The position numbers were made by a program, and so were the translations under genes. A stretch of 33,644 bases of DNA from a virus. Taxonomy: Duplodnaviria; Heunggongvirae; Uroviricota; Caudoviricetes. A model generated the notes under the pieces. It had not been told where the DNA came from, did not search any database, and saw only the letters and a program-made list of their open reading frames with translations. Positions within the stretch are counted from its first letter, which is position 1. Each line of letters starts with the position of its first letter. The stretch is from the IMG/VR virus record IMGVR_UViG_2700989508_000034, one strand, 5' to 3'. Below are positions 3,411-4,353 of the stretch, in pieces.

Positions 3411-3626
3411 ATTGACTTTTTATACAGTGAAGGTAGGATCGCGCGTATATGTAGTATGTTTCAAATCAACAGGATACTACATAAAAGGGAAACCCAGCAT
3501 AGCTGGAACTATGCTGGGTCAATCTGTAAAAACTTGCATCAATGCTTTACTTCGAGCTCGTGGCGTATCCTATGATATTCCCCGGTCTCCTGTAAAGCAG
3601 AGATGCATAAAAAGGAGATCTTTATC

Positions 3627-3797
3627 ATGGATAAAGAGCCTGTTTGCCCTGCCTGTAAGACTCCCTTACAGCTCATCTATCGCCGTTCTCGATCTCAAAA
3701 TGGCAAGACATACAAACCAAAAAATGCTTCCTGTTTCAGGATGCTGATATGTCCGGCCTGTTCTCCCCGGAGGGAAAATACACAAAACGTGCATTAA
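3627..3797 (+). CDS. Hypothetical small zinc-ribbon protein (CPxC ... CPxC), 56 aa
   Basis: ATG at 3627 preceded by AAGGAGA with ~9 nt spacing; MDKEPVCPACKTPL...CFRMLICPACSPRR; opposite strand to the rest of the prophage. Confidence 0.45.
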   Translation: MDKEPVCPACKTPLQLIYRRSRSQNGKTYKPKNASCFRMLICPACSPRRENTQNVH

Positions 3798-3806
3798 CAA
3801 ATTCAC

Positions 3807-3826
3807 CCGGCAGGGAAACCTGCCGG
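3807..3826. terminator. Hairpin CCGGCAGG-GAAA-CCTGCCGG between convergent genes; possible bidirectional terminator
   Basis: Perfect 8-bp stem with GAAA loop, 10 nt after the stop of 3627..3797 (+) and 10 nt after the stop of 3836..4081 (-); flanks only moderately T-rich. Confidence 0.4.
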
Positions 3827-3835
3827 TCGGTATTG

Positions 3836-4081
3836 TTACATCATAGTACCGTCAGTTCCGGGTTGAACCGGCTCTGGTTGCTCTACGGGTTGAGGCTCAT
3901 TTTCCGTGCTGTTTTCAGCCGGAGAACGACCAACCATTCGGGCCAGCACTTCATCAACATATGCGTCGATTTGTGCCTCAAAATCCTTGCGAACCTGCGC
4001 CTTCAGCACGCGGTTCACTTCTTCAGAATAAAGTGCCTGTTTGACAAGCTCTTCAGTAACCGTGCCTTTAATCTCTGGCAT
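3836..4081 (-). CDS. Hypothetical protein, 81 aa, acidic Pro/Glu-rich C-terminus
   Basis: ATG at 4081 with strong RBS (AAGGAGA, ~8 nt spacing); follows the esterase gene on the same strand. Confidence 0.5.
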   Translation of the reverse strand: MPEIKGTVTEELVKQALYSEEVNRVLKAQVRKDFEAQIDAYVDEVLARMVGRSPAENSTENEPQPVEQPEPVQPGTDGTMM

Positions 4082-4116
4082 GAATATTCTCCTTTCCTTT
4101 TCTGGTTCACAAAAAA

Positions 4117-4296
4117 TTAAATCTGACCGGAGTCTTTCGGCTGCGGCATTACAGCACCGCTTTTTATCTTTTCCTCGGCAGCTGCATCAATTTTATTTCG
4201 AAAATAATTGCGAATAATTTTATAACCACCGCTGACAAGCAACAGACAACAAACCACCGTGCAGAAATACAGCAGGCAGACGTTTATATATGTCAT
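4117..4296 (-). CDS. Hypothetical small membrane protein, 59 aa (below the ORF-track size cutoff)
   Basis: Hand translation MTYINVCLLYFCTVVCCLLLVSGGYKIIRNYFRNKIDAAAEEKIKSGAVMPQPKDSGQI; hydrophobic N-terminal segment; GAGTGAGG RBS-like sequence upstream. Confidence 0.3.
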   Translation of the reverse strand: MTYINVCLLYFCTVVCCLLLVSGGYKIIRNYFRNKIDAAAEEKIKSGAVMPQPKDSGQI

Positions 4297-4353
4297 ATAA
4301 GCCTCACTCTTATTAACTGATGTTACAGCCGGATAAATTCCCGGCCGTCACGA

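Follow-up and report, generated by a model that had tools for sequence, protein, structure and literature searches.

The 33,644-nucleotide stretch analyzed here (the window; IMG/VR record IMGVR_UViG_2700989508_000034, Caudoviricetes) represents the right end of a Mu-like prophage in reverse orientation, and between its esterase gene and com it carries three small open reading frames (ORFs). We consider it likely that the three belong to two independent, abutting units with separate proposed roles: two minus-strand genes of the families DUF1378 and DUF826, which are the partners of the esterase, and a plus-strand zinc-ribbon gene borne by a slot next to the promoter Pmom. An earlier note on this DNA had described an 81-residue acidic ORF with a ribosome-binding site (RBS), a 59-residue membrane ORF and a 56-residue ORF with CPxC motifs, and all three were recovered by ORF calling, isoelectric point, hydropathy and RBS inspection. 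We agree with the note that each is a genuine small gene in its own right, that the region separating the esterase from com is an accessory one, and that no canonical Mu protein is among them. Conversely, its treatment of the three as one group must be given up, as DUF1378/DUF826 and the zinc ribbon have separate distributions. The gene order in the Mu-like prophage is gin, esterase, DUF1378, DUF826, the opposite-strand zinc ribbon, com and mom.

The Esterase Cassette

The esterase, DUF1378 and DUF826 form a fixed mobile cassette, in which the two small genes are the constant downstream partners of the esterase. In the window the three genes are adjacent, co-oriented and in this order, from 6411 down to 3836 on the minus strand. 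The first (4354-6411, minus strand; PGAP start 6372) encodes a NanS-p-like esterase of 685 amino acids with the Pfam domains SASA and DUF6645 and a match to phrog_143. The same order was found in 10 of the 10 lambdoid or Stx prophage contexts examined, downstream of Q or stx and followed by holin S and endolysin, and no zinc-ribbon gene is present in the lambdoid contexts that carry the cassette. DUF1378 and DUF826 ORFs have been reported between nanS-p and S in Stx2a phages (PMC10462455). Among Mu-like prophages, the order recurs between gin and the mom control region in six, that is, in every esterase-carrying one examined (the window, a Mu-like phage inserted in an Stx2c phage, NCCP15648, STEC1587, M18 and Sakai Sp18, ECs_4993-4995). 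A tblastn search over phage records detected the esterase in 353 records and DUF1378 in 309, nearly all of them Stx or lambdoid; for DUF826 it returned 10 records only and is too insensitive to serve as a census.

The alleles of the cassette are diverse, with identities of 51-61% for the esterase, 45-81% for DUF1378 and 40-100% for DUF826, and the Mu-like alleles differ from one another as much as from the lambdoid ones. Despite this divergence, the DUF1378 and DUF826 ORFs are intact in all loci compared. Between the window and Sakai, DUF826 is 99% identical, whereas DUF1378 and the esterase are 59% and 60% identical, respectively. This pattern points to a recombination event that swapped alleles, with a breakpoint near 4095, inside the cassette. 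The similarity to the Sakai/Stx2c-type Mu-like prophage (97-99%) ends at about 4095, just upstream of the DUF826 start.

The DUF1378 gene (4117-4296, minus strand; 59 amino acids; RBS GAGTGAGG) matches Pfam PF07125 at 83.8 bits against a cutoff of 25 (E = 9e-24) and phrog_494 at 4e-29. Residues 4-22 of its product form a single strongly hydrophobic N-terminal segment (mean Kyte-Doolittle 2.46), after which comes a basic tail. The DUF826 gene (3836-4081, minus strand; 81 amino acids) has the RBS GGAG 9 nt before its ATG (AAAGGAAAGGAGAATATTCATG) and matches Pfam PF05696 over residues 1-52 (56.5 bits against a cutoff of 25, E = 3e-15) and phrog_311 (5e-30). The protein is acidic, with a pI of 4.4 and a net charge of about -8.5. 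Its AlphaFold2 (AF2) model consists of a short helix, a long helix spanning residues 20-50 (pLDDT above 90) and a disordered tail rich in Pro and Glu. In the alignment the first 50 residues are almost invariant and the tail is variable.

The genes had been called uncharacterized in the earlier note. This does not hold for the minus-strand pair, which belongs to the two Pfam families just named, and the zinc-ribbon ORF is already annotated publicly, but in a wrongly extended form. The profile searches and structure prediction that the note had recommended thus gave names to DUF826 and DUF1378, but no functional label came from any library or fold. NCBIfam, PHROGs and PADLOC assign no function to any of the three proteins, and the three together with the Salmonella homologue of the zinc ribbon gave zero matches to PADLOC defense models. 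Neither a PDB profile search nor a viral structure comparison of the AF2 model provided a functional lead for DUF826.

In the late operon of all lambdoid contexts examined, DUF1378 and DUF826 immediately precede holin S, and DUF1378 is a small single-pass membrane protein, as many lysis regulators are. Both could therefore be lambdoid lysis-timing or holin-associated factors that are carried along beside the esterase with no functional tie to it. This is the strongest rival explanation for the cassette genes and by no means far-fetched, but we regard it as unlikely. In the Mu-like prophages, where the lysis genes are distant and the lambdoid holin is missing, both genes stay intact beside the esterase in alleles of 40-60% identity. 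Neither protein has a holin, antiholin or spanin family match in Pfam or PHROGs except for a chance-level one to Rz (E = 0.21), and in the Mu-like prophages DUF1378 does not adjoin lysis genes, so that it does not qualify as a holin or antiholin. Nor does the window cassette have the lambdoid location, as it lies downstream of gin, with no adjacent holin and outside a Q-dependent late operon.

A consensus scan of the interval between gin and the cassette found neither a promoter nor a terminator, and the cassette is therefore probably co-transcribed with gin, with late read-through in addition. Returning to the view that the two small genes are functional partners of the esterase, we tentatively propose that DUF1378 is a single-pass inner-membrane protein whose basic tail would face the cytoplasm. 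The acidic long helix of DUF826 might dock on this tail, an interaction that is predicted with low confidence. Expressed with gin or through late read-through, the pair could then work at the envelope late in infection, perhaps in the release or localization of the esterase or in the modulation of lysis; this part of the proposal, too, is put forward with low confidence.

The first approximately 105 residues of the esterase (window about 6100-6411, minus strand) are peculiar to the Mu-like versions. Lambdoid NanS-p carries DUF1737 at its N-terminus, and its alignment to the window esterase starts at about residue 103-114. On inspection, the window esterase has no obvious N-terminal signal sequence.

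The Zinc-Ribbon Gene

The zinc ribbon is encoded by a real gene of 55-56 codons that belongs to the Mu-like backbone, and it is not a fragment of a 154-residue protein. In the window it occupies 3627-3797 on the plus strand and encodes 56 amino acids (MDKEPVCPAC...ICPACSP, with the pattern CPxC-X31-CPxC), preceded by AGGAG at 3613-3617, 9 nt 5' of the ATG. The protein is basic (pI 9.8) and hydrophilic, with a maximum 19-residue hydropathy of 0.08. Nearly all long ORFs of the window are on the minus strand, consistent with the earlier remark that this gene is unusual in lying on the plus strand. In O157-type variants an extra G moves the start to the next ATG, giving a protein of 55 amino acids that begins with MKEPVC.

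In RefSeq/PGAP, window positions 3335-3797 are a frameshifted pseudogene, and the corresponding gene of the O157:H7 strains Sakai (ECs_4996) and 7409 is annotated as a 154-amino-acid protein. If so, the zinc-ribbon ORF would be the C-terminal remnant of a longer gene that is dead in the window, and the pseudogene call and the intact ORF of 7409 and Sakai favor this view. We nevertheless find it very unlikely. The uninterrupted 154-residue ORF occurs solely in the O157 Sakai/7409 type, where it arises via two 1-nt indels, and no ORF of this type is found in the Salmonella or M18 lineages. Its first 97 codons overlie a Pmom-like sequence, three GATC sites and a covarying hairpin. In eight aligned E. 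coli variants this upstream stretch contains indels, allelic hairpin swaps and a 79-bp duplication. In the same variants the zinc-ribbon ORF, with its own AGGAG, is open in 8 of 8, and the last 171 nt differ by 6 substitutions and 1 indel, which shifts the start by one ATG. An intact small ORF amid upstream indels, together with a Salmonella homologue annotated at 52-53 amino acids, argues for a real backbone gene and for the longer reading as an artifact. The apparent N-terminal extension (3335-3626, plus strand) is spurious and consists of noncoding control DNA.

The relatives of the zinc ribbon are few. A HMMER search over 1.84 billion representatives yielded one distant relative, a Salmonella cluster with 47% identity (E = 3e-7), and a word-indexed search of 5.8 billion proteins combined with the HMMER scan returned only near-identical E. 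coli copies and this one cluster. Scans of species-representative genomes gave no match, either with peptide patterns or with the promoter pattern. The Salmonella cluster has 59 members from hundreds of contigs, which NCBI annotates as proteins of 52-53 amino acids. In Salmonella enterica the gene has the same position, divergent from com, in Mu-like prophages without gin or the esterase cassette. Between the E. coli and Salmonella proteins the four Cys residues, GKTYxPK and CSP are kept and the C-terminal tail varies. The proportions of nonsynonymous (pN) and synonymous (pS) differences are 0.32 and 0.75, the latter saturated, and the identities by codon position are 62/73/42%. The zinc ribbon is a small, previously unrecognized family restricted to enterobacterial Mu-like prophages.

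No Pfam, NCBIfam, functional PHROG, PADLOC or PDB family matches the zinc ribbon. Its AF2 model (pLDDT 72) has two strands and a basic loop, and the structural matches are to generic zinc ribbons only, with E > 1. Paralogy with Com, itself a small zinc ribbon, was considered and rejected, as the protein has no hit to Zn_ribbon_Com (PF10122), which the com product of the window matches at 2e-12, and the hhalign probability is 6%. The zinc-ribbon peptide is not among the entries of the Sakai small-gene Ribo-seq supplements, and a literature search found no mention of ECs4993-4997.

The zinc-ribbon and DUF826 ORFs converge, and their ends are 38 nt apart. The perfect 8-bp hairpin that the earlier note had placed between them is confirmed at 3807-3826 (CCGGCAGG at 3807-3814 and CCTGCCGG at 3819-3826, loop GAAA), with a folding energy of about -17 to -18 kcal/mol on either strand. 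It is present in loci with the window-type zinc-ribbon cassette and in no lambdoid, Salmonella or other-cassette locus examined. The hairpin is probably a bidirectional terminator common to two unrelated transcription units.

Small, adjacent and convergent genes with a common terminator hairpin may bring to mind a toxin-antitoxin (TA) pair, a possibility raised in the earlier note, and DUF1378 is similar to small membrane toxins in size and topology. A paired module of this kind, whether of the zinc ribbon with DUF826 or of all three genes, is extremely unlikely. The lambdoid phages with DUF1378 and DUF826 lack the zinc ribbon, and the Salmonella prophages with the zinc ribbon lack DUF1378 and DUF826; these separate histories and distributions argue against a TA pair. 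The convergent orientation also does not fit the co-transcribed genes of a type II TA pair. In addition, none of the three proteins matched a TA, defense or regulator family in Pfam, NCBIfam, PHROGs or PADLOC, and the recombination between the window and Sakai alleles at about 4095 falls inside the supposed module. Of the other roles suggested in the note, a regulatory or a superinfection-exclusion function is possible for the zinc-ribbon gene.

The Slot Beside Pmom

The zinc-ribbon gene occupies a slot next to Pmom that is itself conserved, whose cargo is exchangeable and which is divergent from com and mom. At its head lies a sigma-70 promoter-like site, TTGACT-16-TAGGAT (3412-3439, plus strand), identified by consensus scan. 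Five lineages share the arrangement TTGACT-16-TAnGAT followed by CGCGCG, an inverted repeat (3448-3483), a hairpin (3491-3520) and a block at 3521-3612. The promoter-like site is present in 34 of 34 loci, and its elements TTGACTTTTT and TAnGATCGCGCG are invariant in five lineages that were found independently of the pattern. A 15-mer scan of viral contigs was nonspecific, and its matches were filtered.

The cargo switches 3' of the invariant CCTGTAAAGCAG, so that four cassette types are found behind the same promoter and leader. The first two are the window-type and the Salmonella-type zinc ribbons. The third, in NCCP15648 and STEC1587, is a 68-residue ORF convergent with an ORF of 66-78 residues. 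The fourth, in M18 (L005:4350-4877, plus strand), encodes a protein of 175 amino acids: its N-terminus is a zinc ribbon (CRHC...CPYC), a hydrophobic segment probably spans the membrane, and the C-terminal domain is uncharacterized.

The position of the gene raises the possibility of a role in mom control. The zinc ribbon might be a dedicated com-mom regulator, acting as a Pmom repressor, as a Com antagonist or mimic, or on mom mRNA, and its divergent promoter would be the counterpart of momP2. The E. coli and Salmonella lineages alike have the gene divergent from com, a small basic zinc-ribbon fold is typical of nucleic-acid binders, and the zinc-ribbon promoter overlaps the GATC cluster. In addition, Mu possesses momP2, a divergent promoter without a known purpose (PMC4287176, PMC3378877). 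We judge this role improbable, however. In NCCP15648, STEC1587 and M18 the com-mom control region is the same but the slot holds unrelated genes, Mu lacks a gene of this kind, and the zinc ribbon is kept whether mom or a C5 methylase follows com. Homology to Com is lacking, as described above. Instead of overlapping the Pmom -10, the candidate promoter is situated about 95-120 bp upstream of it, and no consensus promoter is found at the equivalent place in Mu. The replacement of the zinc ribbon by unrelated genes while com-mom control stays in place makes an accessory, moron-like role likelier than that of an essential mom regulator.

Three GATC sites lie in this region, at 3391-3394, 3402-3405 and 3437-3440, and the third is invariant in all lineages. 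Since the third falls within or next to the plus-strand -10, the Dam/OxyR control of mom may also touch the divergent gene. The inverted repeat ATGTAGTAT...ATACTACAT (3448-3483), just 3' of the plus-strand -10, is kept in the Salmonella lineage and lost in M18. It could be the stem at the 5' end of an mRNA or an operator.

In the Salmonella locus L014:8362-9274 (plus strand), the zinc-ribbon gene has its own U-tract terminator and is followed by plus-strand genes of 100, 81 and 122 amino acids. These three have no family match except for a weak one of the 122-residue protein to PD-T4-7 (E = 0.0025).

The Leader and a Putative Antisense RNA

Between the promoter-like site and the zinc-ribbon ORF, the block at 3521-3612 is the most alike in E. 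coli and Salmonella, with 80% identity compared to 59% for the ORF and 47-55% for the Pmom region. Conservation and folding delimit a leader at 3536-3620 (plus strand) with two predicted alternative structures. In one, a fold of the 3' part of the leader, the Shine-Dalgarno sequence (SD) is buried: the anti-SD GGUCUCCU (3584-3591) pairs with the SD AGGAGAUC (3613-3620), and the start-codon region is engaged by 3566-3577 (z = -3.2). In the other, which the full leader prefers, the SD is free, and a helix 3536-3550/3592-3606 encloses an inner helix 3554-3589. The z-scores of the SD-sequestering folds range from -2.4 to -3.2. In nine sequences, 93.5% of cells are paired, with 2 compensatory pairs and several G·U pairs that are valid on the plus strand only. 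The nonhomologous cassettes of NCCP15648 and STEC1587 also retain a helix that sequesters the SD, in which the SD arm is different. No Rfam family was matched.

Upstream of the leader lies a GC-rich hairpin (3491-3520) that resembles a terminator on the minus strand, with the tail UUUCCCUUUU, as found by a terminator scan and allele comparison. It exists as five allelic, near-perfect stems with compensatory changes and folding energies of -18 to -23 kcal/mol, compared to -8 to -11 kcal/mol for shuffles. The U-tract after it is broken by CCC in all alleles. MAFFT misregisters the hairpin arms, and single-sequence folds were used instead; the covariation counts from RNAalifold are too low because of this misregistration. 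A 79-bp tandem duplication of the hairpin and the GCATCAATGCTTTAC block gives two units in series at L004:4129-4419, at L010:1629-1919 and in L022, L026 and L027.

A minus-strand promoter-like site, TTTACA-18-TAGGAT (3567-3596), was identified by consensus scan; its hexamers are kept in E. coli and Salmonella and degraded in M18. Together with the hairpin read from 3520 to 3491, this site would hypothetically yield an antisense RNA of about 75-80 nt, from roughly 3560 to 3481. Such an RNA would overlap the SD-freeing part of the leader.

These elements suggest a further possibility, namely that the zinc ribbon and the putative minus-strand RNA of about 80 nt are a type I TA-like pair resembling RalR/RalA, with the antisense RNA forcing sequestration of the SD. 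The two promoter-like sites face each other at a distance of 150 bp. At its 5' end the antisense segment carries a conserved block, and it also includes a U-rich stretch and the covarying terminator hairpin. The leader, for its part, has alternative folds with the SD free or buried. RalR is likewise a small prophage protein under small RNA (sRNA) control (PMC4041452). Even so, such a pair appears decidedly improbable. The zinc ribbon has no Pfam match to Lar/RalR (Lar_restr_allev) at E ≤ 1, it is hydrophilic and does not resemble a membrane peptide, and the RNA is predicted only. Moreover, zinc ribbons that have decayed (C7Y, frameshift) show no obvious loss of the RNA elements, and the CCC interruption follows the hairpin in all alleles.

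Two links of these RNAs to the neighboring operon were tested and rejected. Neither the putative antisense RNA nor the leader pairs in trans with the com-mom mRNA better than shuffles do (p about 0.5), and a Com-binding motif common to the mom translation-initiation region and the leader was not supported, the similarity having a p of about 0.12.

For the zinc-ribbon unit we favor a scheme in which the gene would be transcribed from the TTGACT-16-TAGGAT promoter, with a Dam site in its -10. The transcript leader of about 180 nt would expose or bury the SD and the AUG, and a short antisense RNA, running from the conserved minus-strand promoter to the covarying hairpin, may gate translation. The product would most likely be an accessory, moron-like, nucleic-acid-binding protein that is expressed in the lysogen and is not essential to mom control. 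A more general version of this idea takes the whole slot as an exchangeable expression cassette, with a Dam-sensitive promoter, an SD-gating leader and a cis-antisense RNA of about 80 nt through which any cargo is expressed, in this case a new family of zinc ribbons of 52-56 residues, and with momP2 as a vestige of its promoter. We rate this version as rather improbable.

Genomic Context

At the left edge of the window (1-2235, minus strand) is the 3' part of a large host adhesin gene of the YadA-like trimeric autotransporter type, next to the prophage end. The junction between prophage end and host adhesin gene lies within window positions 1-2328. In other genomes the same prophage type occupies unrelated insertion sites, as expected from Mu-type transposition.

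mom (2329-3066, minus strand; Pfam Mom and PGAP) and com (3020-3220, minus strand; Pfam Zn_ribbon_Com and PGAP) follow the adhesin gene; com is divergent from the zinc-ribbon gene, and its control region adjoins the slot. Beyond the cassette lies gin (6502-7062, minus strand), with the tail-fiber genes further on. Between gin and the invertible tail-fiber segment, PGAP annotates a 61-residue hypothetical protein (L001:9807-9992, corresponding to window about 7076-7261, minus strand).

In two loci (L002:3745-4797 and L014:6398-7450) a C5 DNA methylase of 350 amino acids (PF00145) replaces mom behind the same com and control region, so that one DNA-modification module has been exchanged for another under Com control.

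Evaluation and Significance

Several points weigh against the division into esterase partners and a slot-borne zinc ribbon with the roles proposed here. DUF1378 and DUF826 could be linked to the esterase simply through physical hitchhiking of lysis-associated genes, and no fold or profile match points to a biochemical activity. The promoters rest on consensus matches, and promoter-like matches in the region are no more numerous than in shuffles. The pair counts of the leader are likewise not above the shuffle control, which we attribute to low variation. Some zinc-ribbon copies are decaying, with C7Y in two loci and a frameshift in L016, indicating that selection on the gene is not strict. Finally, a literature search turned up no transcription, translation or phenotype data on the three genes.

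The analysis corrects a recurrent annotation error, in a region that is covered to at least 80% in 201 of 5,426 complete E. coli genomes. In every variant checked, the locus is given as a 154-residue protein or a frameshifted pseudogene, and it is better described as a small zinc-ribbon gene with its control region. The finding that DUF1378 and DUF826 accompany a NanS-p-type esterase across the move from lambdoid to Mu-like phages provides a testable lead, esterase release or lysis, for two families common in Stx phages. In addition, the mom control region is flanked by a conserved and apparently regulated cargo slot, which could offer a handle on expression in Mu-like lysogens. None of this is surprising in kind.

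Comparison with Known Systems

The closest counterpart of the cassette is the nanS-p region of Stx and lambdoid prophages (the L0105 region of 933W; PMC10462455), which has the same three families in the same order and orientation. The identities to the lambdoid region are 51-54% for the esterase (SASA and DUF6645), 45-62% for DUF1378 and 40-47% for DUF826. The two differ in location, as the window cassette lies downstream of gin in a Mu-like prophage, whereas the lambdoid one is part of a Q-dependent late operon beside the holin. They also differ in the esterase N-terminus of approximately 105 residues, which lacks DUF1737 in the window. The cassette is thus the known nanS-p region of Stx phages in a Mu-like genome, and it is already present in the Sakai annotation. 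Sakai Sp18 (O157:H7, ECs_4992-4998) has the same layout as the window, and the zinc-ribbon part of ECs_4996 is identical. In contrast, the window carries other alleles of the esterase (60%) and DUF1378 (59%), and two 1-nt indels have joined the Sakai control region and zinc ribbon into the annotated 154-residue ORF.

In Mu, mom is controlled by Com, a small zinc ribbon, which relieves an mRNA structure that buries the SD and the start codon. The leader described here has no significant similarity to the mom translation-initiation region. The mom control region of Mu resembles that of the window in having divergent transcription beside Pmom and a GATC cluster. However, gin of Mu ends about 95 bp from com with no gene between them, where the window has the zinc-ribbon gene. 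The divergent promoter of the Mu control region is momP2 (PMC4287176, PMC3378877). The plus-strand site of the window (3412-3439) does not overlap the equivalents of momP1 and the C site, as it is situated about 95-120 bp from the Pmom-like -10 (around 3316-3321), and a scan of the Mu sequence gave no consensus promoter at the place equivalent to it.

RalR is Cys-rich in composition. The RalR/RalA (Lar) system of the Rac prophage consists of a small protein controlled by an sRNA (PMC4041452). The zinc ribbon differs from it in having no match to its sequence family, in not being known to act as a DNase or to alleviate restriction, and in that the corresponding RNA is here a predicted one.

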